From Escherichia coli (GTDB taxonomy: Bacteria > Pseudomonadota > Gammaproteobacteria > Enterobacterales > Enterobacteriaceae): 64,000 nt of DNA. The DNA is taken from assembly GCF_044324875.1 (NCBI RefSeq), contig NZ_CP172186.1. The stretch is one strand, 5' to 3'. The translations under genes and the position numbers were made by a program. Of this stretch, positions 5,512 through 60,102 are shown piece by piece (within the stretch, counting starts at the first letter, position 1; each line of letters starts with the position of its first letter). The notes beneath the pieces were generated by a model that did no database searches, was not told where the DNA came from, and saw only the letters and a program-made list of their open reading frames with translations.

Positions 5512-5814
5512 TCAAAAAATGAACTTAGCGTACGATCTCGTACGGTTGGGCCTCAAACCCCTTGTATCAATAGATTCAGTCAATGATCGGAAAGCAATGC
5601 CACGAATTTTCAGGTCTTCAATAATTCGGAGCAAATGTGAGAGTGAACGACCAAGTCGATCCAGTTTCCAGACTATCAGTACATCACCTTCGCGAAGTTC
5701 AGCGAGACAGGACTTAAGTCCCGGGCGATTATCACGAGCACCTGAAGCATGATCCTGATGTAAATGCCGGGGATCCACTCCGGCAGCAATCAACGCATCA
5801 CGCTGTAAAGCAAC
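5512..5814 (-). pseudogene. Serine recombinase (resolvase/invertase) fragment, N-terminus removed by IS66-family insertion
   Basis: ...YVALQRDAL..SGARDNRPGL...GDVLIVWKLDRLGRSL...SLTESIDT matches Hin/Gin/resolvase catalytic domain; catalytic Ser region absent; premature end. Confidence 0.7.
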
Positions 5815-6500
5815 GTAAGCGTCAACGGAGCACCGTATTGACGCTTATTTATTGGTGAGTACTACGTTCCATGGCAGGAGTTCGTCAACTCGGTTGGAAA
5901 GCCATTCCGGCAGTACGCTCAGAATATGGCGCAGATACGCTTCCGGATCGATACCGTTCAGACGGCAGGTGCCGATCAGCCCGTACAGCAGTGCACCACG
6001 CTCGCCGCCGTGATCGCTACCGAAGAACACGTAATTTTTCTTTCCGAGACAGACTGCACGAAGCGCTCTTTCCGCTGTGTTATTGTCCGCCTCCGCCAGA
6101 CCGTCATCACAGAAGTTGCACAACGCAACCCAGTGCTTCCTGATATACCGGAACGCATCTCTCAGACGGCATTTTTTCGATAACGTGTGTTCTTTCTCCT
6201 GCATCAGCTTATACAGGGAAGTCAGTAGCGGTTTACTCTGCATTTGCCTGACCGCCAGGCGTTCAGACACCGGCAACCCGCGTATTTCGTGCTCAATGGC
6301 GTACAGTTCGGGCATCAGGATTATGCCGCTTTCCTCACAGAGAGGAATTATCGTAGCATTCCCCGTAGTGATGCCATGTGGCAACTGGCTGTCCAGCTGG
6401 GAAATAGTGGATTTATCAGGCCGCCGAAACTTACTCACGCTGATACACGTATTCGTATAGAGCCCTTTTTTAACGCTGAAAATGAATACGACTGACATCG
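5815..6500 (-). mobile_element. IS66-family element, 3' fragment with terminal IR
   Basis: Terminal GTAAGCGTCAACGGAGCACCGTATTGACG at 5815 resembles the IS66 IR; contains tnpC C-terminal coding region. Confidence 0.7.
5845..6498 (-). pseudogene. IS66-family TnpC, C-terminal fragment
   Basis: ...[54 protein letters not shown]... aligns with C-terminus of TnpC at 8504-10042. Confidence 0.8.
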
Positions 6501-6510
6501 CAAAATAGTG

Positions 6511-6535
6511 GTAAGGCCGTCGGGGGCGGCCTTAC
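6511..6535 (-). terminator. Stem-loop downstream of vapC copy 1
   Basis: GTAAGGCCG-tcggggg-CGGCCTTAC, followed on the minus strand by a T-rich run. Confidence 0.45.
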
Positions 6536-6539
6536 TCCT

Positions 6540-6956
6540 TTATCCTGCCCAGTCTTCCAGTACCAGTCCAGGCACCCGCTCAAACTCTCTCACATTATTC
6601 GTCACCAGTATTGCCCCGGTGGCGATGGCGTGCCCGGCGATCGCCGTGTCGTTCGGACCGATCGGCGTGCCGGCGAGGCGCAGCGCCACCTTAACCTCCG
6701 TGGTTGCATCCACCGCAGCGCGATCCCAGGGCAGGATGGCATCGAGACGGGCGCAGAACGCGTCAACCAGCTGCACGTGGCGTGGCGATGCCTTTGGACC
6801 GGTGGCGCCGAAGCGCATCTCGGAGTAGGTGATGGCCGAGACCACTATACGGTGACCGCGCAGCACCGCCTGCTCCAGATTCTTAAGCACTGCTTCAGGC
6901 TGCTCGCGCATGATGAACGAGCAGATGTTCGTGTCGAGCATATAGATCTTGTTCAC
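6540..6956 (-). CDS. vapC: VapC toxin (PIN-domain RNase), copy 1
   Basis: 138 aa MNKIYMLDTNICSFIM...; overlaps vapB by 4 nt. Confidence 0.9.
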   Translation of the reverse strand: MNKIYMLDTNICSFIMREQPEAVLKNLEQAVLRGHRIVVSAITYSEMRFGATGPKASPRHVQLVDAFCARLDAILPWDRAAVDATTEVKVALRLAGTPIGPNDTAIAGHAIATGAILVTNNVREFERVPGLVLEDWAG

Positions 6957-10436: not shown

Positions 10437-11299
10437 GCTTAGTCAGCCGTTGTCTCCGGGTGTCGCGTGCGCAGTTGCACGTCATTCTCAGACGAACCGA
10501 TGACTGGATGGATGGCCGCCGCAGTCGTCACACTGATGATACGGATGTGCTTCTCCGTATACACCATGTTATCGGAGAGCTGCCAACGTATGGTTATCGT
10601 CGGGTATGGGCGCTGCTTCGCAGACAGGCAGAACTTGATGGTATGCCTGCGATCAATGCCAAACGTGTTTACCGGATCATGCGCCAGAATGCGCTGTTGC
10701 TTGAGCGAAAACCTGCTGTACCGCCATCGAAACGGGCACATACAGGCAGAGTGGCTGTGAAAGAAAGTAATCAGCGATGGTGCTCTGACGGGTTCGAGTT
10801 CCGCTGTGATAACGGAGAAAAACTGCGAGTCACGTTCGCGCTGGACTGCTGTGACCGTGAGGCACTGCACTGGGCGGTCACTACGGGCGGCTTCAACAGT
10901 GAAACAGTACAGGACGTCATGCTGGGAGCGGTGGAACGCCGCTTCGGCAACGAGCTTCCGGCGTCTCCAGTAGAGTGGCTGACGGATAATGGTTCATGCT
11001 ACCGGGCTAATGAAACACGGCAGTTTGCCCGGATGTTGGGGCTTGAACCGAAGAGCACGGCGGTGCGGAGTCCGGAGAGTAACGGCATAGCAGAGAGCTT
11101 CGTGAAAACGATAAAGCGTGACTACATCAGTGTCATGCCCAAACCAGACGGGTTAACGGCAGCAAAGAACCTTGCAGAGGCGTTCGAGCATTATAACGAA
11201 TGGCATCCGCATAGTGCACTGGGTTATCGCTCGCCACGGGAATATCTACGGCAGCAAGCCAGTAATGGGTTAAGTGATAACAGGTGTCTGGAAATATAG
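10394..11299 (+). CDS. insD: IS2 InsD (OrfB, DDE transposase)
   Basis: 301 aa [21 protein letters not shown]... Confidence 0.9.
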
Positions 11300-15207: not shown

Positions 15208-15534
15208 ATGACTAAAAATACTCGTTTTTCCCCCGAAGTCCGTCAACGGGCAGTTCGTATGGTTCTGGAAAGCCAGGGCGAATATGACTCACAATGGGCG
15301 GCAATTTGTTCCATTGCTCCAAAGATTGGCTGTACGCCAGAGACCCTGCGTGTCTGGGTTCGCCAGCATGAGCGGGATACCGGGGGCGGTGATGGTGGGC
15401 TCACCACCGCTGAACGTCAGCGTCTGAAAGAGCTGGAACGCGAAAATCGTGAACTGCGCCGCAGTAACGATATCCTTCGCCAGGCTTCCGCTTATTTTGC
15501 GAAGGCGGAGTTCGACCGCCTCTGGAAAAAATAA
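15208..15534 (+). CDS. IS3-family transposase OrfA
   Basis: 108 aa [26 protein letters not shown]... Confidence 0.9.
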
Positions 15535-15555
15535 TGCCACTGCTGGATAAGCTGC

Positions 15556-16401
15556 GTGAGCTGCAGTGAGCTGCATATTGCCCCGTCAACGTATTACCAC
15601 TGTCAGCAACAGCAGCATCATCCTGATAAACGCAGCGCCCGTGCGCAGCGTGATGACTGGCTGAAGAAAGAGATACAGCGCGTATACGATGAAAATCACC
15701 AGGTGTACGGTGTGCGTAAAGTCTGGCGTCAGTTGTTACGGGAAGGTATCAGAGTGGCCAGATGCACTGTGACACGTCTTATGGCGGTTATGGGTTTTGC
15801 CGATGTTCTCCGGGGTAAAAAGGTCCGCATTACCGTCAGCCGGAAAGCCGTTGCCGCAGGCGACCGCGTAAACCGTCATTTCGTGGCAGAACGTCCTGAC
15901 CAGCTGTGGGTGGCTGATTTTACTTACGTCAGCACATGGCAGGGCTTTGTTTATGTGGCGTTCATCATTGATGTGTTTGCCGGATACATCGTGGGATGGC
16001 GGGTCTCCTCGTCCATGGAAACGACATTCGTGCTGGATGCACTGGAGCAGGCGTTGTGGGCCCGTCGTCCATCTGGCACCATCCATCACAGCGATAAAGG
16101 CTCTCAGTATGTATCGCTGGCCTACACGCAGCGGCTTAAGGAAGTCGGATTACTGGCATCAACAGGGAGCACAGGCGACTCGTATGACAACGCGATGGCG
16201 GAGAGCATCAATGGTCTTTACAAGGCGGAGGTAATACACCGTAAGAGCTGGAAAAACCGGACAGAAGTGGAGCTGGCTACACTCACGTGGGTGGACTGGT
16301 ATAACAATCGACGATTGCTGGAAAGGCTGGGCCATACTCCCCCGGCAGAAGCAGAAAAAGCTTATTATGCTTCCATCGGAAACAATGATCTGGCAGCCTG
16401 A
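15556..16401 (+). CDS. IS3-family transposase OrfB (DDE; made as OrfAB fusion by -1 frameshift)
   Basis: 281 aa; tracked start is an alternative codon downstream of the frameshift window. Confidence 0.85.
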   Translation: MSCSELHIAPSTYYHCQQQQHHPDKRSARAQRDDWLKKEIQRVYDENHQVYGVRKVWRQLLREGIRVARCTVTRLMAVMGFADVLRGKKVRITVSRKAVAAGDRVNRHFVAERPDQLWVADFTYVSTWQGFVYVAFIIDVFAGYIVGWRVSSSMETTFVLDALEQALWARRPSGTIHHSDKGSQYVSLAYTQRLKEVGLLASTGSTGDSYDNAMAESINGLYKAEVIHRKSWKNRTEVELATLTWVDWYNNRRLLERLGHTPPAEAEKAYYASIGNNDLAA

Positions 16402-32652: not shown

Positions 32653-32760
32653 CTAGTGTGGTTTCAGACGTTGTTCGATTTCATTCTGTAGCGCCTGAAG
32701 TGTGCCTGATTTGAGGTTTTTTGTGCTCTGGCGGTCGAAAAGAATTTCAATGCGGATCAT
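32653..32760 (-). CDS. DinI-like small ORF (35 codons before an in-frame TAG)
   Basis: MIRIEILFDRQSTKNLKSGTLQALQNEIEQRLKPH*; SD AGGGAG 9 nt upstream; read-through would give ...MWESPS...; LexA box in promoter. Confidence 0.4.
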   Translation of the reverse strand: MIRIEILFDRQSTKNLKSGTLQALQNEIEQRLKPH

Positions 32761-32781
32761 GTTCTCATCTCCCTTTTATTT

Positions 32782-32801
32782 TACTGTGTATATATACAGT
32801 A
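32782..32801. promoter_or_regulatory. LexA (SOS) box overlapping a sigma70 promoter on the minus strand
   Basis: TACTGTGTATATATACAGTA (CTGT-N8-ACAG); -35 TTGACT (revcomp of 32825-32830) and -10 TAGAAT (32801-32806) with 18-bp spacer. Confidence 0.75.
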
Positions 32802-33153
32802 TTCTAATAACTGAATCCACACACAGTCAAATGTCATTGTTGTGACTAAAAAACGCTCAATTCTCTGAGAGTGTGGCTGTATGCCTGCTGTGGACTGCTG
32901 TGTCCAGCTTATCCACAGCATTTTGTGCACGGTTCTGTGGACAAAATACCTGGTTACCCAGGCCGTGCCGGCACGTTAACCGGGCTGCATCCGATGCAAG
33001 TGTGTCGCTGTCGCCGGCCTTCTCACCCGGTCACGTTTCGTCGTTCCTCCTCCACGAGCTGCGGCTTCGGGGCCGCACCTGCATTCGTATGCGGTCGCCC
33101 GGTTACAGGTGCGGCACGGCCTGATGGAGGCCGCATGTGAGAGGAGAATTCCC

Positions 33154-34080
33154 ATGCCAAACTGGTGCTCAAATCGTATGTATTTTTCTGGTGAACCGGC
33201 ACAGATTGCTGAGATTAAACGACTGGCCAGCGGTGCAGTCACACCGTTTTATCGCCGCGCCACAAATGAAGGTATTCAGCTGTTTCTGGCCGGAAGTGCC
33301 GGACTTCTGCAGACCACTGAAGATGTGCGGTTTGAACCATGTCCCGGACTGACGGCTGCCGGACGTGGCGTTGTATCGCCGGAGAATATCGCGTTCACCC
33401 GCTGGCTGACATACCTGCAGGACGGTGTACTGCTGGATGAGCAAAACTGCCTGATGCTGCATGAACTCTGGCTGCAGAGCGGTACTGGACAGCGTCGCTG
33501 GGAAGGATTACCGGACGATGTCAGGGATACCATCACCGCACTTTTCACCGCAAAAAGAGGTGACTGGTGTGGCTTCTGGAGTAACGAAGATGTATCGGTG
33601 TGGTGGAACCGTCTGTGTGACAACGTACTGCCGGAAAAAACCATGCCGTTTGACCTGCTGACGGTTCTGCCCACCCGCCTGGATGTTGAAGTGAATGGCT
33701 TTAACGGTGGTGTTCTGAACGGTGTTCCTTCTGCATATCACTGGTATACGGAACGGTATGGCGTGAAGTGGCCTGTGGGGTATGAGGTGAATATCAGTAA
33801 TCAGGGAGACAACTTCATTAAGGTGGATTTCGACACGCCGTGGTGTCAGCCGGAAAGCGACGTTATTGCAGAATTAAGCCGCCGTTTCAGCTGCACGCTG
33901 GAGCACTGGTATGCCGAACAGGGCTGTGATTTCTGTGGCTGGCAGTTGTATGAGCGCGGAGAGCTCGTTGATGTGCTGTGGGGGGAACTGGAATGGTCTT
34001 CCCCGACAGATGACGATGAGCTGCCGGAAGTCACCGGACCTGCGTGGATAGTCGACAATGTGGCGCATTATGGCGGATGA
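33154..34080 (+). CDS. Conserved leading-region protein of unknown function
   Basis: ATG 33154 with GAGGAG RBS; 308 aa; Cys/Trp-rich. Confidence 0.6.
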   Translation: MPNWCSNRMYFSGEPAQIAEIKRLASGAVTPFYRRATNEGIQLFLAGSAGLLQTTEDVRFEPCPGLTAAGRGVVSPENIAFTRWLTYLQDGVLLDEQNCLMLHELWLQSGTGQRRWEGLPDDVRDTITALFTAKRGDWCGFWSNEDVSVWWNRLCDNVLPEKTMPFDLLTVLPTRLDVEVNGFNGGVLNGVPSAYHWYTERYGVKWPVGYEVNISNQGDNFIKVDFDTPWCQPESDVIAELSRRFSCTLEHWYAEQGCDFCGWQLYERGELVDVLWGELEWSSPTDDDELPEVTGPAWIVDNVAHYGG

Positions 34081-34462
34081 AGTATGACGGAGACGGGCGG
34101 GCAACTGCCCGTTTCTTTTCCGGTAAAGGATGTCGCCATGCTCCTCTTTTTACTGCGCCGGCTGACGCGGCGCGGCATAAACGCTGCCTGTGGTCAGTGT
34201 CCCGCGTCCGGTGGGCACGGGACGGGCGCTTTTACCGCTCCCGGCTGGCGTCGGTGACAGTGTACGCCAGCCTGTCGCCCTTTTCTGATGAACGCCCTTC
34301 AAGCCGCTTTCGCGGCATAACCTTGCCGTCAAACAGACGACGGCTGCGGTATTCCACGGTCGGCCTGACCCGTTACCGGACGCGGTGAACAGCCCACAGG
34401 CAGCGGGGAACGGGCACCACAGGGGTGCCCTCCCGGTGCCCCCTGTAAGAGAAGGAGCTGTT

Positions 34463-36690: not shown

Positions 36691-37030
36691 ATGTCGCCGC
36701 AGGCTCCGCTTTACTCGGCCATGCGGGGCATGGCCTTGTGGGTTTTCAGTTATGTGGCCTCAGCGTCGTGTGCGGGCTGTGCCGTGCCTCCATCGTAGCC
36801 GGGCTTCTGCGGGCGGGTTGCAAGGTAAGGTGAACCGCTGCGGTCACCCGGTCCCTCCTTCCCGTCTGCCGTGATTTTCCGGTCGTTCACCCGCTCAGAT
36901 TTCGCGGTCTCACCCTCCAACTCCCGCCAGCCGTGTGCGTCAGGCTGCGGCTTCCCTTGCGCCCTTGCAACCCTGCAGGCCCGGCAAAGATGGAGGCACG
37001 GCACCGCCCGGTGTCGCGGAATATGTGAAC
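36691..37030 (+). repeat. GC-rich direct repeat family A, copy 1 (candidate single-strand promoter/ssi element upstream of klcA)
   Basis: About 340 bp, roughly 95 percent identical to 48927-49265; dense inverted repeats. Confidence 0.6.
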
Positions 37031-37045
37031 AACGGAGGAAATCCC

Positions 37046-37471
37046 ATGCAGTATGCGAAACCTGTCACCCTGAACGTTGAAGAGTGCGACCGCCTTTCTT
37101 TTCTGCCTTACCTGTTTGGCAACGATTTTCTGTATGCCGAGGCGTATGTGTACGCGCTGGCGCAAAAAATGATGCCGGAATATCAGGGAGGCTTCTGGCA
37201 TTTCATCCGCCTGCCGGACGGTGGCGGTTACATGATGCCGGATGGCGACCGTTTTCATCTGGTCAACGGTGAAAACTGGTTTGACCGCACTGTGAGTGCT
37301 GATGCCGCAGGCATCATTGTTACGTCTCTTGTGATTAACCGCCAGTTGTGGCTGTACCACGACAGCGGGGATGCGGGACTGACACACCTGTACCGGATGC
37401 GTGATGCGCAGTTGTGGCGTCACATCGAATTTCACCCCGAATGCAACGCGATTTACGCGGCACTGGACTGA
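37046..37471 (+). CDS. klcA: KlcA/ArdB-family antirestriction protein
   Basis: MQYAKPVTLNVEECDRLSFLPYLFGNDFLYAEAYVY...; ATG 37046 with GGAGGA RBS. Confidence 0.8.
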   Translation: MQYAKPVTLNVEECDRLSFLPYLFGNDFLYAEAYVYALAQKMMPEYQGGFWHFIRLPDGGGYMMPDGDRFHLVNGENWFDRTVSADAAGIIVTSLVINRQLWLYHDSGDAGLTHLYRMRDAQLWRHIEFHPECNAIYAALD

Positions 37472-38128: not shown

Positions 38129-38299
38129 TACAGGGGCAGGCGGTGGAGGCCGCCTGTCAGCCCGCGCGAAAACCCCTGGCAGGCTGGCGCCTGCCGGAAG
38201 GGATGCGGGCCACGCTGGCGCGTCGCCCGTTACCCTTCCTGTTGGTGACAGGCGTTGTTTCAGGAAGTACCTGTTACAGACCTGTCGTTAAAGAACCTT

Positions 38300-38870
38300 C
38301 TTACACATGCGCCCCTTCGGCTCCCGGCTGCCTGGCGGCATCCGGTCGTCAGGCCCGACTCCGACAGGCAGCTGCTGGCGCACCCGCCAGTCTCCGCCGA
38401 ACCCGCTGGCGCGGTTTCGGGCTGTCGCTACGGTCCGATGCGTGAAAACCCGGGCTTGCAGCGACCGTTCCGGTCGCGCCGCCTCTGTCGCGCCGTGACC
38501 TGCGCTCCCTGCACACCTGACGGTGTGTGAGGAAACTGCGCCTGATGGCGCAGCAGTCCTCCCTCCTGCCGCCACCTCTGCGGCCTGTTTCCCGCTGTGG
38601 ACTTTCCGGGGGGCAGACGTAACCCCCTCCCGTTCCATCTGTCCAGGGTGAGATGCACCGGCCACAAAATTTTTAGCCATGAACCCGGCAAAAAATTTTG
38701 CGTCCGCCCCCGGACAGCTGCCCCGTGAGGCGGTAAACGGGCCCCCATCGGAAAGGTCCACTGCGGGGAGAAACCCCTGTGAAGTGGACGGCAGGAGGAG
38801 CTTTCGCTCCTCTGAAGGGGCACATGAACGTCCCGTCGCCGGTATCCGGTTTATCTCACATCTTTCAGTC
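38300..38870 (+). repeat. GC-rich direct repeat family B, copy 1 (upstream of ssb)
   Basis: Shares long near-identical blocks with 49960-50500 and 53020-53370 (e.g. CTTCGGCTCCCGGCTGCCTGGCGGCATCCGGTCGTC, GGAAAGGTCCACTGCGGGGAGAAACCCC). Confidence 0.6.
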
Positions 38871-38920: not shown

Positions 38921-41581
38921 GTGCGCCGTTGAAGCGCGGTGTTTTATGGAGTGTTGCCTGAAAAGCAACATGGCTTAGTGGTATAGCCATTGCATACTGT
39001 GGTTAGCCTTGCTTGGTAACAGGCTCGGAGATCCTGAAAAGGAGAGGTGAACATAGCATCCACAGAAAAGGGTGGTGAATATGGAAATCGTTATAAGTAT
39101 CACCATTCAATGCAAGATGTATATGGATAAACTGGGTTTGTTGAAGTCGAGATCTATGTGGGAAACAGGAAACCAATAACGCAGAACGATTGAAGCGTTA
39201 TTCCCGTACTAGCACAAGAAATCCGTCCGACGTTGATTGTGACCACTCTAACGGGCCAGCTATTGATGAAATAGTTAAACGATCGAAAGACATCCTAAGT
39301 ACATCGCATCTCCACACCGTGAAACTACGGGACTACCTAAACTGGATTTATACCCAGCATGGTAGCGGAGTCTCCATAGTACTCAAGGTCGGCCTGTAAT
39401 GGGTTCCGGCAGTCCGCATTATACGGAAGCAGCAAAGGTATAAATCAACCGGAAGGAAGATGAAAGCCTCACAGTGCTGCGGGGAAGGGAGACAGTTGTT
39501 AGATACATCAATCTCTAAGAGGAGGGTTAGCCAATGCTGCCTGATGAACTTGAGAAAAGATTAGATGGAATTGAGGATGCTTCAAAAAAAGGGTATCCAG
39601 TACGTAATCTATACAAAATTGCGTGTGAGCCCGGACTGTGGCTGCAAGCCTACGTGAATATACGGGCCAATGCAGGTGCACTGACTCAAGGTGTATCAAC
39701 AGATACCATTGATGGCTTTTCTATCGAAAGAGCAGAGAAGCTGGCAAAAACATTGCGGAGTAGAGAATACGTAGCGAAACCTGTACGCAGAGTTCAGATC
39801 CCAAAAAAGGACGGAAAAACCAGACCGCTGGGGATTCCAGGTGGAGACGATAAACTGGCGCAAGAAGTAGCAAGAATTATTCTGGAAAGGGTTTATGAAC
39901 CAGTATTCTCTGAACACTCTCATGGATTCAGACCAAAACGTTCGTGTGAAACTGCGCTCAGATCTATTCGTCCAGTCTGGAACGGAGTTAAATGGATCGT
40001 GGATGTTGATATCAAAGGTTTCTTTGACAATATCCCCCACAAACTATTGCTGAATACACTGGCAGAGAAAATTAAGGATAAGAATTTCCTGAAATTAATC
40101 GAACAGTGGCTGAAGGCAGGATATGTGGACAATTGGAAATACCATCGCTCATATTCTGGCACGCCACAAGGTGGGATAATTTCTCCCTTACTGGCAAATA
40201 TATACCTCGACAAACTGGACCGTTTTGTAGAACAGAATTTAATTCCTGCATATACAAGCGGTACAAAACGAAGAGCGAATCCAGATATGAACAGGCTGGC
40301 CCATAAGATTCATAAACTACGAAAGAAAGTAGACGGTATGGCAACTGATTCTGAATCAGAAAAAGAAGCCATAAAGAAAGAAATTGAACGACTGCTTGAA
40401 GAAAAACGTTCTATACCATCTCAGGTCATGAACGATCCAAACTTCAGGCGTATGTACTATGTTCGATATGCTGATGACTTCGTAATCGGTGTCATCGGCT
40501 CGAAGAAAGATGCTGAACATATATCAAGACAGGTCAGAAACTTTATTACTACTTCACTGGGATTGGAAGTTAATGAAGCAAAGACCAGGATCCGCCATAT
40601 CTCAGAAGGAGTTAATTTTTTAGGCTATGAAATCAGACAGGCAGATGCAAAGAAATTGCTGAAGCAGAAAATGCAAGGGCGGCACGCTCTCCGGAGATCC
40701 ACCACAGGAATTGTGCAGCTCTTCGTTCCTGACAATATAGCCGCTAAATTTTGTCACCAAAAGAAATATGGCTGTTATGAGAATGTGAAGGCTGTACATC
40801 GTTCAAGTCTACAAAATCTCAGTGAAGCTGAAATTGTTCTGACTTTCAACGCGGAAATGCGCGGATTGGCGAACTACTACAGTCTGGCGCTGGACATGAA
40901 ATATAAATTATCAAAATTATATTTCATATGGCAAATAAGCCTTTTTAAGACCCTGGCGAATAAACGACGTAGTTCAGTGAATAAAGTCGCCAAATCGCTA
41001 CGGCAAAATAATGGAGATCTGGCTATTACCGTTCAGGCCAAAAATGGATCCCGAAAGATTGAGGTTTTCAAACTCAAACATGTCAATCGCAACCGAACAA
41101 CGATTGTCGATACGGAACCGAGAACCGCACATATCACAACCCGCACAACAGAGATCATGCGTCGATTAGGGGCAAGGATCTGCGAGTATTGTGCGAAGAC
41201 TGGGCGCTGCGAAGTACATCATGTCAGAAAGCTAAAAGACCTGAAGAAAGGTCGTAAGGCCGGATATAAACCCAGCTTGTGGCAACTAATGATGATCGCA
41301 CGCCGCCGGAAAACGATGATTTTGTGCGCAAGTTGCCACGACAAGTTACATAGCGGAAAACTACCCGATTTGAGACAGGAAAAGGGAAGAATACTCCTGC
41401 AACCACCTGTCTCAAGCGGGGATTCTGCTAAATGAGTTTATCCCCAATAAGCTAGCAATGGAGAGCCGTATGCACTGAAAGGTGCACGTACGGTTCGGAG
41501 GGGGGGTAACGGTGATCTAACTCAAGATAAGCAGGACATATTCGCCATTTATCTTGAAAGACCACACGTACCCTACCCTAC
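38921..41581 (+). mobile_element. Group II intron (2661 bp) inserted in ssb
   Basis: 5' GTGCG, 3' ...AC; domain V-like hairpin GAGCCGTATGCACTGAAAGGTGCACGTACGGTTC at about 41462; encodes RT/maturase/HNH protein; flanking exons splice in frame. Confidence 0.85.
39534..41435 (+). CDS. Group II intron-encoded protein (reverse transcriptase - maturase - HNH endonuclease)
   Basis: 633 aa; RT motifs incl. YADDFVIGV; C-terminal HNH CEYC...HHV...CASCHDKLH. Confidence 0.9.
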   Translation: MLPDELEKRLDGIEDASKKGYPVRNLYKIACEPGLWLQAYVNIRANAGALTQGVSTDTIDGFSIERAEKLAKTLRSREYVAKPVRRVQIPKKDGKTRPLGIPGGDDKLAQEVARIILERVYEPVFSEHSHGFRPKRSCETALRSIRPVWNGVKWIVDVDIKGFFDNIPHKLLLNTLAEKIKDKNFLKLIEQWLKAGYVDNWKYHRSYSGTPQGGIISPLLANIYLDKLDRFVEQNLIPAYTSGTKRRANPDMNRLAHKIHKLRKKVDGMATDSESEKEAIKKEIERLLEEKRSIPSQVMNDPNFRRMYYVRYADDFVIGVIGSKKDAEHISRQVRNFITTSLGLEVNEAKTRIRHISEGVNFLGYEIRQADAKKLLKQKMQGRHALRRSTTGIVQLFVPDNIAAKFCHQKKYGCYENVKAVHRSSLQNLSEAEIVLTFNAEMRGLANYYSLALDMKYKLSKLYFIWQISLFKTLANKRRSSVNKVAKSLRQNNGDLAITVQAKNGSRKIEVFKLKHVNRNRTTIVDTEPRTAHITTRTTEIMRRLGARICEYCAKTGRCEVHHVRKLKDLKKGRKAGYKPSLWQLMMIARRRKTMILCASCHDKLHSGKLPDLRQEKGRILLQPPVSSGDSAK

Positions 41582-44864: not shown

Positions 44865-44990
44865 GCGCATGCAAAATGGCATCTGAATCGATCGCAGTTT
44901 GGCATTCGAATCGATCATGATTTGGCATCCATCTCCGATCACAGTTTGGCATCACAATCGATCACGATTTGGCATGCTTCCGATCATTGA

Positions 44991-46637
44991 TTGGCATCCT
45001 GCCAGTCACTCCGGGAATTAACTCTTTTCACCACAGTCTCCATTGCCGTGTTTAAACCAGTGGAGACGTCAATGTCCAGAAAGAGAAAATCCAGGAGCAC
45101 TATGGAAACCTGTTTTAAGATCCTTCAGCTCAAGTTCGACAAGAAGCTGACTAACCGTTGTATCGGACTGACGTTACACATCAGCGCCTCAACCGTTTTT
45201 GAGGTTCTTGCCCGCTTCAAAGCCTCTTCTCTGTCATGGCCATTACCTGCTGATATATCCCATGACACGCTGGAGAAACTCATTTTTCCGCCCAAAGACA
45301 CCTTTGCATCAGAGCTTGTAATGCCTGACATGTTGTACTTCGATACGGAAATGAGAAAACCAGGTGTGACGCGGCAACTGTTGTGGATGGAATACAAGGC
45401 ACAGGCGGGTAACAAAGCGATGGGATACTCGCACTTCTGCCGTTGCTACCGGGAGTGGAAAAAAACGCGACGTCTCTCCATGCGCCAGGAGCATCGTGCC
45501 GGCGAAAAGCTTTTTATCGACTTCTGTGGTCCTACGGTTCCTGTTATTAATCCGGACACCGGTGAGATACGCCGCGTGGCAATCTTCGTGGCCGTAATGG
45601 GGGCGTCCAACTATACCTACGTTGAAGCGTGCGAAGGTCAGGACATGATGTCATGGTTAAATGCCCACAGCCGTTGCCTGACCTTCCTGGGCGGCGTACC
45701 GAAGCTGCTCATCCCCGATAACCTCAGAAGCGCAGTGAAAAAGGCCGATCGATATGAGCCTGTCATCAACGACAGTTATCAGGCACTGGCTGAGCACTAT
45801 GGCACGGTTATCATCCCGGCCCGACCACGCAAACCTAAAGATAAACCAAAAGCAGAAAACGGCGTCCTCATCGTTGAACGATGGCTTCTTGCCCGCATCC
45901 GTAATGAAACCTTCCACACGCTCAGGGCGCTGAATGCGCGCCTTAGGGAGTTACTGACAGACATGAATAACCGGCCAATGAAGGGGTACGGCAATCAAAC
46001 CCGTGCAGAACGCTTCCGCATACTGGATGCGCCAGCACTCTCTCCGCTGCCTCTGGCACCTTATGAATACACGGAATACAAAGCTGTGAAGGTTGGCCCT
46101 GACTACCACGTTGAATATGCCCGTCACTGGTACTCCGTTCCACACGAACTGGTCGGTCAGCGTCTGTCACTGAAGGCGGGGCAGTCGGTGGTACAGCTCT
46201 GGCACAAGGGGCAGTGTGTGGCGCAACATCCGCGCAGCACACATGAATATAAACACACAACCAATCCGCTTCACATGCCAGAGCGCCACCGGCAGCACGG
46301 GACATGGACACCGGAACGCCTGATCGAGCAGGGAAAACGTACGGGCCCGTCCACAGGCCGGGTGGTTGAATCCATGCTGAAGGCAAAACCCCATCCGGAA
46401 CTGGCTTATCGTGCAGTTCTGGGGCTGCTGGCACTTCAGAAAAAATACGGCCCGGAACGGCTGGAAAAGGCCTGTTACGTTGCCCTGCACTATAACGCCC
46501 CTGACAGACGCTTTATCGACAATCTGCTGCGTCACCATCGGGAGAACCTGGAGCTTCCATTATCCCGCCAGGGCGAACAACATCCGGCATATGCTTCAGA
46601 GCATGAAAACCTGCGTGGTCCGGGCTACTACCACTGA
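44991..46637 (+). CDS. istA: IS21-family transposase IstA (start codon uncertain)
   Basis: N-terminal HTH, DDE core (tracked ORF 548 aa). Confidence 0.85.
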   Translation: MASCQSLRELTLFTTVSIAVFKPVETSMSRKRKSRSTMETCFKILQLKFDKKLTNRCIGLTLHISASTVFEVLARFKASSLSWPLPADISHDTLEKLIFPPKDTFASELVMPDMLYFDTEMRKPGVTRQLLWMEYKAQAGNKAMGYSHFCRCYREWKKTRRLSMRQEHRAGEKLFIDFCGPTVPVINPDTGEIRRVAIFVAVMGASNYTYVEACEGQDMMSWLNAHSRCLTFLGGVPKLLIPDNLRSAVKKADRYEPVINDSYQALAEHYGTVIIPARPRKPKDKPKAENGVLIVERWLLARIRNETFHTLRALNARLRELLTDMNNRPMKGYGNQTRAERFRILDAPALSPLPLAPYEYTEYKAVKVGPDYHVEYARHWYSVPHELVGQRLSLKAGQSVVQLWHKGQCVAQHPRSTHEYKHTTNPLHMPERHRQHGTWTPERLIEQGKRTGPSTGRVVESMLKAKPHPELAYRAVLGLLALQKKYGPERLEKACYVALHYNAPDRRFIDNLLRHHRENLELPLSRQGEQHPAYASEHENLRGPGYYH

Positions 46638-46653
46638 CAGAAGGAACAACAGT

Positions 46654-47409
46654 ATGAGTGATAACCTGTTAAACAAACTGACCCAACTGAAACTCCCGGC
46701 GATGGCCGGGAGCCTGATACGGCAGCGGGAAACGCCTCAGACCTACGACGAACTGTCGTTCGAGGAAAGGCTGACGCTGCTGGTTGATGACGAGCTTCTG
46801 AGCAGGGAAAACAGCCGTGTGGCACGGTTGAGAAAAAATGCCGGCCTGAAATACCAGGCAACACCGGAAGGGCTGCGCTATCCGGCCTCAAGAGGTCTGC
46901 GGGCTGAACAGATGAGAGAACTGCTGAACGGCCACTACATAACCCACAGGAAAAACCTGCTGATAACCGGTCCGACAGGATGTGGCAAGAGCTGGATAGC
47001 CAATGCGCTGGGCGAACAGGCATGTCGACAGAAACACAGCGTCCGGTACTGTAGAACCGGGCGATTACTGGAACAACTGGCTCAGGGACGTGTTGATGGC
47101 AGCTGGCTGAAATATCTGAAACAGTTGCAAAAAATACAGGTTCTAATCCTGGACGATCTGGGGCTGGAACAGTTAAGTAACGCCCAGTGTAATGACCTTC
47201 TGGAGCTCATAGAGGATCGTTACGGACAAAGCAGCACGATAGTGGTAAGCCAGTTCCCGGTAGATAAATGGCATGGTCTGATGGAGAACCCAACAACAGC
47301 AGATGCCATCCTGGACAGACTGGTACATAACTCACACCGAGTGGTCCTTCAGGGAGAGTCACTGAGGAAAAATCCCCCGGTAGTGGAAAGCAGCGAAAAA
47401 ACGCGTTAA
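46654..47409 (+). CDS. istB: IS21-family helper ATPase IstB
   Basis: 251 aa; Walker A GPTGCGKS, Walker B VLILDDLG. Confidence 0.9.
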   Translation: MSDNLLNKLTQLKLPAMAGSLIRQRETPQTYDELSFEERLTLLVDDELLSRENSRVARLRKNAGLKYQATPEGLRYPASRGLRAEQMRELLNGHYITHRKNLLITGPTGCGKSWIANALGEQACRQKHSVRYCRTGRLLEQLAQGRVDGSWLKYLKQLQKIQVLILDDLGLEQLSNAQCNDLLELIEDRYGQSSTIVVSQFPVDKWHGLMENPTTADAILDRLVHNSHRVVLQGESLRKNPPVVESSEKTR

Positions 47410-47508
47410 AAAGCGGTAGAAAAAGTTAAGTTCCCGGTTGATCGAATGGATGCGAATCGCTGATCGGACTTCGATGCCAATCCGTGATCGAATAGAGCGG
47501 AATACGCA

Positions 47509-48926: not shown

Positions 48927-49265
48927 ACGTCGCCGCCGGCTCCGCTTTTACCCGGCCATGCGGGGCATGGCCTTGTGGGTTTTCAGCTCTGTGGCCTCAG
49001 CGTCGTGTGCGGGCTGTGCCGTGCCTCCATCGTAGCCGGGCTTCTGCGGGCGGGATGCAAGGTAAGATGAACCGCTGCGGTCACCCGGTCCCTCCTTCCC
49101 GTCTGCCGTGATTTTCCGGTCGTTCACCCGCTCAGATTTCGCGGTCTCACCCTCCAACTCCCGTCAGCCGTGCGCGTCGGGCTGCGGCTTTCCTTGCGCC
49201 CTTGCATCCCTGCAGGCCCGGCAAAGATGGAGGCACGGCACCGCCCGGTGTCGCAGAACATGTGA
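48927..49265 (+). repeat. GC-rich direct repeat family A, copy 2 (upstream of ardA)
   Basis: Near-identical to 36691-37030. Confidence 0.6.
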
Positions 49266-49783: not shown

Positions 49784-49959
49784 TTTACTCCCCCGCTCCG
49801 GCGGGGGTATGGCCTGCCGGGCCGCCGGAAAACCCTGGCAGGCTTACGCCTGCCTGAAATACAGGAGGGCCGCGCCTGCGGCGCTGCCCTTCCTGCCCGT
49901 CATGGTGTGAGGCATTTTTCTGTTTTGTCGTTTCTGTTGTTCTGATGCCCGGAGGCGGG

Positions 49960-50500
49960 GACACCCTTCGGCTCCCGGCTGCCTGGCGGCATCCGGTCGT
50001 CGGCCCGACTCCGACAGGCAGCTGCTGGCGCACCCGCCAGTCTCCGCCGAACCCGCTGGCGCGGTTTCGGGCTGCCGCTACGGTCCGATGTCTGAAAAAC
50101 CAGGCCTGCAGCGACCGTTCCGGTCGCGCCGCCCCTGTCGCGCCGGAAACGGCGCTCCCTGCACACCTGACGGTGTGTAAGGCCACTGCGCCTGATGGCG
50201 CAGTCAACCCTTCCGCCGCCACCCCTGCGGCCTGTTTCCCGCTGTGGACTTTCCGGGGGCTGAAGCGGCCACAACACGGGGCAGCCGTCCAGGGGAGAGA
50301 TGTACCAGCCACAAAACTTTTTGCCGCAGGCGTCAAAAACTTTTGCGTCTGCCCCCGGACAACTGCCCCGTGCCGTGGCAGTCGCTGCCCCATCGGAAAG
50401 GTCCACTGCGGGGAGAAACCCCGAAGAAGTGGACGGCAGAAGGGGCTTTCGCCCCTCCGGGGGAGCAACCGGTCGGCCCGGCGACCTGATTCAGCAGAAG
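49960..50500 (+). repeat. GC-rich direct repeat family B, copy 2
   Basis: See 38300-38870. Confidence 0.6.
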
Positions 50501-52909: not shown

Positions 52910-53019
52910 TTTTTTGGTTGTAAATGTCGTGCGGTTTTCTCTGTTTTCACCTGTGCGGGAGTGGTGTGCCAGTGACCACCACATGCCATTGTTGTGCCGT
53001 CGTTTTTCTTCAGTCGCGC

Positions 53020-53370
53020 CGGATGCGGCGCTCCCTGCACACCTTACGGTGTGTAAGGCCACTGCGCCTGATGGCGCAGCTGCCTCTGCCTGTCTGCCGC
53101 CGCACTGCGGCCTGTTCTCCGCAGACGGACTTTCCGGGGGTACATACACGACCACATCCCGTTTCAGTCGTCCAGGGGAGAGATGTACCAGCCACAAAAC
53201 TTTTTGCCGCAGGCGTCAAAAACTTTTGCGTCTGCCCCCGGACAACTGCCCCGTGACGTGGTGAGCGTCCCCCGTCGGAAAGGTCCACTGCGGGGAAATC
53301 CCCGAAGACCCGGACGGCAGAAGGAGCTTCGCTCCTCCGGGAAATGACCTGGCTGACCCGGCAGTCGTGA
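53020..53370 (+). repeat. GC-rich direct repeat family B, copy 3 (partial)
   Basis: See 38300-38870. Confidence 0.55.
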
Positions 53371-54322: not shown

Positions 54323-54664
54323 TCAATTGTTGTTCATATCGATGCCATCTTTCCTGCCTGAATCTGTCTTTTTAGGTGCTGTTTTAGAGGAAGAACGGCG
54401 GGATGTTTTTTTCGATTCTGCTTCCCGAATAATGTCACGAAGTGCCTTCTCTCCTACTTCATACCCTGCATTTTTGAGCGTGTCACGAATATCTGCCAGT
54501 GTATAACCCTTTGTCCTTACCAGGACAATAATGTCATCACGAATGGCATCAAGAAAATCACGCAATGTTTTCCGTTGAGCGGTGAGATCTGGCAATTCCG
54601 ATAAAGCAGCTTTTGCCAGCTGGATGTCATCATCTGAGTAAAATTTTTTAGAAGCCATTGGCAC
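54323..54664 (-). CDS. Hypothetical protein (basic C-terminus)
   Basis: 113 aa ORF. Confidence 0.5.
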   Translation of the reverse strand: MPMASKKFYSDDDIQLAKAALSELPDLTAQRKTLRDFLDAIRDDIIVLVRTKGYTLADIRDTLKNAGYEVGEKALRDIIREAESKKTSRRSSSKTAPKKTDSGRKDGIDMNNN

Positions 54665-54699
54665 TTTCTCTCCGTTTAATCTTGAAGCCTGATTTTATC

Positions 54700-54890
54700 A
54701 TCAAAAACTGACTCCTGGCAGGGCTGCGCCCTGCCTCTGCCGTCTGCATAAGACTATGATGCACAAAAATAACAGGCTATAATGGCATGAAAAACGGGAC
54801 AGGATGTGTAATCGTATAACCGCGCACGCACGGCTATACGATTACCACCTGGTCAGGGCTTAGCCCCGACACCCCGGTAAGGAGCAGACC
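54700..54890. other. oriT-like region upstream of nikA
   Basis: 11-bp inverted repeat GTAATCGTATA / TATACGATTAC (54808-54845) immediately upstream of nikA-nikB. Confidence 0.5.
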
Positions 54891-58908: not shown

Positions 58909-59235
58909 ATGACTAAAAATACTCGTTTTTCCCCCGAAGTCCGTCAACGGGCAGTTCGTATGGTTCTGGAAAGCCAGGGCGAATATGACTCACAATGGGC
59001 GGCAATTTGTTCCATTGCTCCAAAGATTGGCTGTACGCCAGAGACCCTGCGTGTCTGGGTTCGCCAGCATGAGCGGGATACCGGGGGCGGTGATGGTGGG
59101 CTCACCACCGCTGAACGTCAGCGTCTGAAAGAGCTGGAACGCGAAAATCGTGAACTGCGCCGCAGTAACGATATCCTTCGCCAGGCTTCCGCTTATTTTG
59201 CGAAGGCGGAGTTCGACCGCCTCTGGAAAAAATAA
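58909..59235 (+). CDS. IS3-family transposase OrfA
   Basis: Identical to 15208-15534 product. Confidence 0.9.
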
Positions 59236-59256
59236 TGCCACTGCTGGATAAGCTGC

Positions 59257-60102
59257 GTGAGCTGCAGTGAGCTGCATATTGCCCCGTCAACGTATTACCA
59301 CTGTCAGCAACAGCAGCATCATCCTGATAAACGCAGCGCCCGTGCGCAGCGTGATGACTGGCTGAAGAAAGAGATACAGCGCGTATACGATGAAAATCAC
59401 CAGGTGTACGGTGTGCGTAAAGTCTGGCGTCAGTTGTTACGGGAAGGTATCAGAGTGGCCAGATGCACTGTGACACGTCTTATGGCGGTTATGGGTTTTG
59501 CCGGTGTTCTCCGGGGTAAAAAGGTCCGCATTACCGTCAGCCGGAAAGCCGTTGCCGCAGGCGACCGCGTAAACCGTCATTTCGTGGCAGAACGTCCTGA
59601 CCAGCTGTGGGTGGCTGATTTTACTTACGTCAGCACATGGCAGGGCTTTGTTTATGTGGCGTTCATCATTGATGTGTTTGCCGGATACATCGTGGGATGG
59701 CGGGTCTCCTCGTCCATGGAAACGACATTCGTGCTGGATGCACTGGAGCAGGCGTTGTGGGCCCGTCGTCCGTCTGGCACCATCCATCACAGCGATAAAG
59801 GCTCTCAGTATGTATCGCTGGCCTACACGCAGCGGCTTAAGGAAGTCGGATTACTGGCATCAACAGGGAGCACAGGCGACTCGTATGACAACGCGATGGC
59901 GGAGAGCATCAATGGTCTTTACAAGGCGGAGGTAATACACCGTAAGAGCTGGAAAAACCGGACAGAAGTGGAGCTGGCTACACTCACGTGGGTGGACTGG
60001 TATAACAATCGACGATTGCTGGAAAGGCTGGGCCATACTCCCCCGGCAGAAGCAGAAAAAGCTTATTATGCTTCCATCGGAAACAATGATCTGGCAGCCT
60101 GA
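59257..60102 (+). CDS. IS3-family transposase OrfB
   Basis: 281 aa. Confidence 0.85.
   Translation: MSCSELHIAPSTYYHCQQQQHHPDKRSARAQRDDWLKKEIQRVYDENHQVYGVRKVWRQLLREGIRVARCTVTRLMAVMGFAGVLRGKKVRITVSRKAVAAGDRVNRHFVAERPDQLWVADFTYVSTWQGFVYVAFIIDVFAGYIVGWRVSSSMETTFVLDALEQALWARRPSGTIHHSDKGSQYVSLAYTQRLKEVGLLASTGSTGDSYDNAMAESINGLYKAEVIHRKSWKNRTEVELATLTWVDWYNNRRLLERLGHTPPAEAEKAYYASIGNNDLAA

Follow-up and report, generated by a model that had tools for sequence, protein, structure and literature searches.

A putative class 2/ssp2-family single-strand promoter and a conserved DnaA-box pair upstream of a DUF1281 gene in the leading region of an IncK2/Z plasmid

A stretch of 64,000 nucleotides of Escherichia coli contig NZ_CP172186.1 (hereafter the window) was analysed around a GC-rich, structured segment that precedes the gene for a DUF1281 protein in a plasmid leading region. 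The window is of the IncK2/Z type, within the I-complex, and its stretch around the segment is 100% identical to pLH50-c-A (IncK2/Z, MOBP, MPF_I). The segment comprises a DnaA-box module (module A, 32871-32950) and a 170-nt imperfect hairpin on the minus strand (module B, 32956-33125), and the GC content is 0.61 at 32900-33199, compared with 0.40-0.48 to the left. The DUF1281 gene (PF06924, E 1.1e-49) follows on the + strand at 33154-34080, with its Shine-Dalgarno sequence GAGAGGAGAA and its ATG (33154) at 33139-33156, according to the sequence and the open reading frame (ORF) calls. The left neighbour is a minus-strand remnant of impC, 35 aa long, whose LexA box is at 32782-32801; the segment lies, as the original prediction had it, between a LexA-controlled small ORF, the truncated impC, and the DUF1281 gene.

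Read along the + strand, the window holds a parA-like gene, parM, stbB, the impC remnant and then the segment, which is followed by DUF1281, an M.EcoGIX-type methylase gene, klcA/ardB, ssb, psiB, psiA, ardA and nikA (~54879). From DUF1281 onward, every gene is on the + strand and directed toward nikA and the origin of transfer (oriT). Since leading-region genes are oriented with the transferred strand as their template (PMC11541004, PMC7736820), this gene orientation makes the minus strand of the window the transferred strand. The distance from the segment to nikA is ~21.7 kb, including a group II intron and an IS21-like insertion, and the segment is the oriT-distal, last-entering end of the leading region. 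It had been placed at the start of the leading region, which is right for the gene order, where it comes first, and wrong for the order of entry, where it comes last.

The promoter scan gave no sigma-70 double-strand promoter on the + strand upstream of DUF1281. Its only promoter was that of impC on the minus strand, and a double-strand promoter or terminator was rejected as an account of the segment. In the impC region (32653-32830), the promoter TTGACT-18-TAGAAT (minus strand) and a perfect LexA box are kept despite the truncation, and parM and stbB stand in the place of impA and impB.

The hairpin on the transferred strand

Folding as single-stranded DNA (ssDNA) confirmed that the segment is highly structured. 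The 301-nt segment reached ~-75 kcal/mol, compared with -51.5 +/- 4.3 for shuffled sequences (z = -5.5 and -5.7 for the two strands, the latter for the minus strand), and none of 100 shuffles folded as well. Fold energy failed to discriminate between the strands (-75.2 vs -75.6 kcal/mol). The stem GCCGCACCTG/CAGGTGCGGC that had been quoted as an example of the long stems is present at 33072-33081/33106-33115 and is 100% complementary, but it falls outside the fold conserved in relatives; the strongest inverted repeat is at 32959-32985/33097-33123, with 27-nt arms that are 81% complementary. A hairpin scan after Wen et al. (300-nt spans, DNA parameters, cut-off -75 kcal/mol) produced seven peaks below the cut-off within the window's leading region, and the segment was one of them (~-75.6 to -76.0 kcal/mol).

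Distant DUF1281 loci were gathered from plasmids and, for each species, from one genome. The Erwinia, Pantoea, Cedecea and Pluralibacter genes, whose DUF1281 protein is 35-50% identical, have upstream of them a hairpin homologous to 32956-33125, without a DnaA box. A profile made only from the seven non-E. coli hairpins gave three full-length matches in the window, on the minus strand only: the segment itself (33120-32962, E 3.6e-12), a paralogue 5' of klcA/ardB (36777-37004, repeat D1, E 3.4e-9; klcA/ardB ATG at 37046) and a paralogue 5' of ardA (49014-49241, E 1.7e-9). The klcA/ardB paralogue is the counterpart of a class 2 promoter of plasmid pESBL and of F ssp2, and the ardA paralogue is that of the other pESBL class 2 promoter; the class 2 sites of pESBL and F have mapped start sites or genetic evidence (PMC12672017; 10.64898/2026.01.09.698686). 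A ten-sequence profile, in which the window, pESBL and F copies joined the seven, matched F ssp2 (10486-10713 of the F record, L004; E 1.6e-15) and both pESBL class 2 sites (E ~1e-17). BLAST at word size 7 found no match between the segment and the class 1, 2 and 3 hairpins of the window; the idea of a fourth class, drawn from this absence of similarity, was overturned by the profile hidden Markov models.

All 26 full-length copies of the family were found on the transferred strand, and 25 of them have an ORF start 12-84 nt downstream, most at 27-43 nt. The ORFs encode DUF1281, M.EcoGIX-type methylase, KlcA/ArdB or ArdA, and module B ends 29 nt before the DUF1281 ATG, with the Shine-Dalgarno sequence in between. 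The profile matches, the orientation and the placement before ORF starts thus indicate that module B is a short paralogue of the class 2/ssp2 promoter cassette, which would serve DUF1281.

The fold of module B, which was delimited by an nhmmer match (33125-32956, E 2.7e-36), the covariation fold and the minimum-free-energy (MFE) fold, is conserved among relatives. Alignment A2 (13 transferred-strand sequences, 55% mean column identity) yielded a consensus fold of 39 pairs, in which 91.9% of the cells were paired, compared with 82% in shuffles and 32-42% in controls with the partners slid by 1-3 columns. Compensatory changes were present in 15 pairs, and none of 500 shuffles reached the observed covariation. 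Helix 1 joins the 3' (non-template) arm at 32958-32969 to the 5' (template) arm at 33113-33124 (A2 columns 266-277 and 41-52); it contains an invariant GCACGGC/GCCGTGC core, shows compensatory changes in 6 of its 12 pairs, and is predicted to form the downstream duplex that would hold the start site. The 3' arm of helix 2 (GCCCGGTT, 32978-32985) pairs with 33097-33104, and that of helix 3 (32993-33002) with 33076-33085, five of the ten pairs of helix 3 having compensatory changes. The apical motif AAGCCGCA (33060-33067, minus strand) is invariant in all 13 sequences of A2; in alignment A3, which combines A2-type copies with F ssp2 and the class 2 copies of the window, the Klebsiella copy (L005) reads AGGCCGCA.

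Promoter-like motifs lie along one arm of this fold. The -10-like hexamer TAACGT (32973-32978, minus strand) lies on the non-template arm at a conserved internal loop or mismatch, and its T, A and final T are invariant (T179, A180 and T184 in A2; T153, A154 and T158 in A3). The -35-like hexamer TTGCAT (32994-32999, minus strand) lies 15 nt upstream of it, within duplex helix 3, and its TTG is invariant in the DUF1281-type copies (T158, T159 and G160 in A2). The TTG is thus in a paired helix whose other positions covary, TAnnnT is where relatives have an internal loop, and the 12-bp helix with the invariant core comes after TAnnnT; F ssp2 has the same layout, TTGCAT-N15-TAAGAT. Provided that the gene-proximal arm is the template, the motif-bearing 3' arm would be the non-template strand. 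Such a layout is that expected of a pre-formed promoter, and its geometry predicts a transcription start at A33116 (+ strand), 7 nt past the -10, with a 38-nt leader. The -10 assignment is firmer than the -35 assignment.

The promoter cassettes appear to have been swapped between genes. In Klebsiella and Citrobacter plasmids (DUF1281 45-47% identical), another hairpin takes this place upstream of the gene, one homologous to 34140-34440 of the window; these hairpins (L005 3700-3990; L013 and L014, ~230-450 nt upstream of 2501) are 76-79% identical to the class-3-type one. In Erwinia and Pantoea plasmids, a class-2-type hairpin also lies before the M.EcoGIX-type methylase gene and an antirestriction gene, the further copies being at 5642-5818 and 7902-8081 of L006, 3839-4014 of L011, 4146-4323 of L012 and 3842-4018 of L015. 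As far as the sequences tell, one cassette family serves at least three successive gene groups in these plasmids.

A search of Rfam found no family in 32700-33300 at E up to 1, and its sole matches in the window were the group II intron and ALIL. Relative to pLH50-c-A, the group II intron (38921-41581) interrupts the ssb coding sequence after 39 nt, and it contains a 633-aa reverse-transcriptase ORF and the Rfam Intron_gpII match (41461-41581). The IS21-like element (44870-47508; ORFs of 521 and 272 aa) is at the psiB/psiA junction, again relative to pLH50-c-A. The ALIL pseudoknot matches, which are frameshift signals of the IS3 family, are at 2625-2741, 15489-15575 and 59190-59276.

The DnaA-box module

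Module A is the left edge of the block shared with plasmid F, as the homology with F begins exactly at 32871 and continues through the methylase gene at 92.6% identity. It carries the expected consensus DnaA box TTATCCACA, of the R1/R4 type, at 32909-32917 on the + strand, and the box is identical in pESBL, F, Klebsiella L005 and Citrobacter L013. The inverted near-copy TGTGGACAA is also real, at 32936-32944, one base off the 32935-32943 of the original prediction; this near-box, TTGTCCACA on the minus strand, has an 8/9 match and lies 18 nt from the consensus box. A third TGTGGAC is found at 32889-32895. The partner box is TTGTCCACA or CTGTCCACA in most relatives and TTATTCACA in pESBL, which fits the full TTWTNCACA consensus.

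The window, F, Citrobacter L013 and Klebsiella L005 all keep the arrangement TTATCCACA-N17/18-TGTGGACA despite divergence of the spacer and the flanks. Among the Klebsiella and Citrobacter DUF1281 plasmids, the box pair precedes the class-3-type hairpin in two of three (L005 and L013, not L014). The window and pESBL differ at ~7% of the positions of module A and at ~1% of those of module B, and the box is unchanged. This pattern suggests selection on the DnaA boxes, for which the conservation is not proof because the independent lineages are few. The metagenome scan for TTATCCACA-N16-19-TGTGGACA mostly returned origin-like DnaA-box clusters on chromosomes of unrelated bacteria; its plasmid matches came from two plasmid families that the comparison already included, and TGTGGACA is a common DnaA-box variant. 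Some metagenome contigs hold the box part plus one arm only, and Shigella plasmids keep the hairpin part alone. In F, a frameshift splits DUF1281 (L004 6811-7781) into two ORFs, with the hairpin and the DnaA box upstream both intact. To the immediate left of module A in F (L004 ~6528-6556), a good double-strand promoter-like site, TTGACA, ~15 nt, TAGAAC was noticed by eye on the + strand; it is absent from the window.

Most of the DnaA box can be placed in the stem of a small hairpin (32886-32920, minus strand; TGCTGTGGA/TCCACAGCA), with nine perfect pairs, or ten in the MFE fold, which adds a terminal G-T. Module A of the window folds at -20.1 kcal/mol (z = -4.8). The box stems of F, Klebsiella and Citrobacter are 7-8 bp long (z = -1.2, -0.1 and -1.4, respectively); overall, the stems range from 7 to 10 bp, their pairing partners differ by lineage, and they are significant in the window and pESBL only. 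Module A most probably binds DnaA. An origin of replication was rejected: there is no box cluster and no unwinding element, with one perfect and one 8/9 DnaA box, one GATC in 800 bp, no 13-mer with fewer than three mismatches to the consensus and no rep gene nearby.

Interpretation and rival explanations

We consider it probable that module B is a single-strand DNA promoter of the class 2/ssp2 family and that module A is a conserved inverted DnaA-box pair. This interpretation builds on the family membership, the conserved fold, the motifs, the orientation and the spacing described above, and it predicts promoter activity and a start site for module B and DnaA binding for module A. According to the work cited above, the strand that reaches the recipient would be the window's minus strand, which serves as template for the leading-region genes on the + strand. 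On this incoming strand, module B is predicted to fold into the long imperfect hairpin, which would create a promoter-like duplex with the -35 TTGCAT in a paired helix, a 15-nt spacer and the -10 TAACGT at a mismatch. Host sigma-70 RNA polymerase would start near 33116, and DUF1281 would be transcribed while the complementary strand is still missing. Copying of the strand would, by analogy with Frpo, ssp1 and ssp2, abolish the hairpin and silence the promoter, and the module B transcript could double as a primer, as shown for Frpo. Module A would contribute its inverted box pair at the outer edge of the leading-region block.

The proposal of a single-strand initiation (ssi) site is thus retained in part. 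The element very probably works on the transferred strand and belongs to an ssi-related family, as promoters of the Frpo type were originally recognised as ssi sites, with transcripts able to prime DNA synthesis (Masai & Arai 1997 via PMC12672017, 10.64898/2026.01.09.698686). The view of the GC-rich structure as a DnaA or primase site is not supported: the large structure is homologous instead to RNA-polymerase-dependent class 2/ssp2 single-strand promoters, and the DnaA box is in a separate 80-nt module that is missing from the seven Erwinia, Pantoea, Cedecea and Pluralibacter relatives with the same hairpin.

Several observations weigh against the single-strand promoter and the box pair as proposed here. 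Each hexamer matches the consensus at only three of six positions, and the -35 is soft, with a spacer of 15-16 nt that becomes ~20 nt in the IncI class 2 copies by a hand count in A3. In the MFE fold of the window, the -10 is mostly paired, A32976 and C32975 alone being unpaired. The apical domain of the relatives is shortened in the window copy, and the wobble pairs (22 G-T vs 11 A-C) lean toward the minus strand weakly, 9 of the 22 coming from one column pair. The pESBL and F copies fold at -70.5 and -70.2 kcal/mol, above the -75 cut-off; the Mathews 1999 parameters returned an identical -70.5 for pESBL, perhaps because the parameter set was unchanged, so this value is no independent check. 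The pESBL study reported six induced operons/promoters only. Because the pESBL and F copies miss the cut-off and six promoters were reported, the window copy may be weak or silent. F keeps the hairpin despite its frameshifted DUF1281, perhaps through mere recency of the frameshift. As to module A, the single perfect DnaA box in 64 kb is at chance level (0.43 expected; at least one in 35 of 100 shuffles), and the relaxed TTWTNCACA shows no enrichment (3 in the window vs 4.9 expected). The module is absent from the Erwinia, Pantoea, Cedecea and Pluralibacter relatives. The alignments with relatives indicate that it is for its conservation there, and not for its occurrence in the window, that the box is noteworthy.

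In a first alternative, the segment would be a decayed relic, i.e. a degenerate and silent class 2 paralogue that is at most a passive structure, or possibly a mild barrier to complementary-strand synthesis like ssp2, with a box that is a hitch-hiking chance match. The segment apparently lies outside the six pESBL operons/promoters of PMC12672017, its fold of -70 to -76 kcal/mol is weaker than the -78 to -111 kcal/mol of the validated hairpins, and the shortened apical domain, the DUF1281 pseudogene in F and the statistically unremarkable DnaA box all fit decay. We nevertheless regard a relic as fairly unlikely, since neither TTG nor TAnnnT has been lost and the pairing arms covary between genera. 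By a hand count, module B shows 2 differences in ~180 positions between the window and pESBL, and the segment is found at 95-99% identity in ~4,300 plasmid records of sequenced enterobacterial plasmids. A strong DUF1281 Shine-Dalgarno sequence follows 29 nt past the hairpin, with no other promoter in the scan, and DUF1281 evidently needs a hairpin, because a hairpin of another class serves it in the Klebsiella and Citrobacter plasmids.

The box hairpin of module A raises a second alternative, in which an ABC-primosome-type ssi site is the main function of the segment: on the incoming strand, DnaA bound to the box hairpin would bring in DnaB-DnaC, and primase would then prime synthesis of the complementary strand in a rifampicin-resistant manner. 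The perfect R1-type box in its stem (9 perfect pairs, 10 MFE pairs), the z of -4.8 for module A in the window, the position at the distal edge, from which a primer would extend back through the whole leading region, and the conservation of the box pair in diverged plasmids beside a different hairpin class are in its favour. There is also the precedent of the A site, an ssDNA hairpin in which a single DnaA box R1 in the stem is enough for DnaB loading (Masai 1990/1995, Carr & Kaguni 2002 via PMC6127211). The stems are, however, 7-8 bp and no better than shuffles in F, Klebsiella and Citrobacter, their pairing partner varies among lineages, and one box per 64 kb equals the chance expectation. 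The module is missing in Erwinia-, Pantoea-, Cedecea- and Pluralibacter-type relatives, the promoter family accounts for the large structured part, which is most of the segment, and I-complex plasmids have their own primase. An ABC-primosome site is unlikely to be what the segment mainly does.

It is likewise quite doubtful that module A is the place on the incoming strand at which the host replicative helicase is loaded. If it were, the last single-strand promoter would be followed directly on its 3' side (on the transferred strand) by a DnaA-box hairpin of the ABC-primosome type. DnaB-DnaC would be loaded at this hairpin by DnaA, and DnaB and primase would travel with the entering strand, which would explain the continuous conversion observed outside the leading region. 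Extension of the first primer back across that region would flatten the promoter hairpins one by one, so that primer extension would set the duration of early ('zygotic') gene expression and a replication signal would define the boundary of the anti-defence island.

DnaA blocks or regulates transcription at single boxes, and module A might act in double-stranded DNA: DnaA on the inverted boxes would insulate or repress between the divergent impC promoter and DUF1281, and the hairpin would be incidental. The two inverted boxes are 17-18 bp apart, one of them of top affinity, and the change in the pESBL partner box keeps the DnaA consensus and not the hairpin complementarity. This explanation is very unlikely, as F has module A without an adjacent impC, there is no + strand promoter to regulate, and the compensatory changes in module B reveal selection on pairing and not on sequence alone.

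Finally, a structure in an mRNA leader (attenuator or stabiliser) or a real 89-aa ORF at 32871-33140 is extremely improbable: the frame is kept in the window and F despite a 3-nt indel and several database records call a hypothetical protein there, but the ORF starts with GTG, lacks a Pfam match and a Shine-Dalgarno sequence and has a translation rich in Arg/Pro/Cys/Gly, the pairing rather than the reading frame is what relatives keep, for which the ORF was rejected as a gene, and there is no upstream + strand promoter to bring the hairpin into RNA, no Rfam match, and a wobble count that leans toward the minus strand.

Which plasmid genes are expressed during the first minutes that follow conjugation, ahead of the action of host defences, is determined by single-strand promoters. 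An active module B would raise the number of early operons in I-complex and F-type plasmids by one, from the present count of six (pESBL) or four (F), and would make the widespread, uncharacterised DUF1281 protein a candidate establishment or anti-defence factor. The profile unites the published class 2 promoters, three 'Frpo candidates' and the hairpins of the Erwinia and Pantoea DUF1281, methylase and antirestriction genes as one portable promoter-cassette family, which should aid the annotation of leading regions, where RefSeq calls spurious proteins over some hairpins. The DnaA-box pair at the outer edge of the island offers a concrete, cheap handle on how complementary-strand synthesis starts on the incoming strand.

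Comparison with known single-strand elements

Wen et al. 2025 reported six single-strand promoters in the IncI1 plasmid pESBL by RNA-seq and 5' rapid amplification of cDNA ends of transconjugants, and these fall into class 1 (ssi1-3, Frpo-like), class 2 (5' of klcA and ardA) and class 3 (5' of M.EcoGIX) (PMC12672017). The exact sequence of the segment is absent from the list of Samuel et al., in which F ssiD and ssiE are other sequences, and a literature search for the F ssi sites (ssiA-E) gave no usable mapping. The ABC-primosome A site resembles module A, by sequence and predicted fold, in that an R1-type DnaA box is able to sit in a duplex stem on ssDNA; the module A stem is short and inconsistently conserved, and it makes up ~35 nt of the 280-nt segment.

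The class 1 sites (Frpo/ssi1-3 of F and ColIb-P9; Masai & Arai 1997, Bates et al. 1999) are transferred-strand hairpins that rebuild a -35 and a -10 and are active in ssDNA only, the principle that is proposed for module B, and the -10 is alike as well (TTACGT in the class 1 copy of the window, TAACGT in module B). The class 1 hairpins exceed module B in length and stability (-91 to -111 kcal/mol), BLAST gave no match between the segment and the class 1 copy of the window, and the family profile misses the class 1 sites. In the window, the fold scan placed the class 1 (Frpo/ssi-type) hairpin repeats at 38167-38838, 49826-50483 and 53013-53341, and the first of them matches the ColIb-P9 'Frpo3' listed by Samuel et al.

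The class 3/ssp3 element is the neighbour of module B in the same island. Its probable counterpart in the window is the class-3-type hairpin at ~34140-34440 on the transferred strand, which folds at -89.7 kcal/mol per 300 nt and lies directly 5' of the M.EcoGIX-type methylase gene; this hairpin shows no BLAST similarity to the segment and forms a separate fold peak. In Klebsiella and Citrobacter plasmids, a hairpin of this class is at the position of module B. In pESBL, the sequence directly 5' of the methylase gene folds at -90.5 kcal/mol, and 54398-54781 is intergenic in the gene table of the same laboratory. Given the re-run of the Wen method on pESBL, the position described as 5' of M.EcoGIX and this gene table, the class 3 promoter is very likely the 34140-34440 hairpin, and the segment very likely lies outside the published six. 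A RefSeq hypothetical-protein coding sequence (34077-34388) over the class-3-type hairpin looks spurious, with an Arg-rich translation from GC-rich sequence.

Frpo'4, Frpo*1 and Frpo*3, three purely computational candidates that Samuel et al. 2024 list for an element of an insect-gut metagenome (PMC11541004, supplementary file 4), align over their full length with the module-B-type hairpins and share their invariant motifs. Compared with class 2/ssp2, module B is ~60 nt shorter at the apex, has a weaker fold and no BLAST similarity, precedes DUF1281 and not an antirestriction gene, and has a start site that is predicted. The likeness to class 2/ssp2 is a full-length profile homology in the same orientation, with the common arms GCCGTGCC...CCGGGC...AAGCCGCA...CCTTGCAT...CCCGGyTAnnnT...GGCACGGC, on the transferred strand and 27-43 nt before a gene of the anti-defence island.

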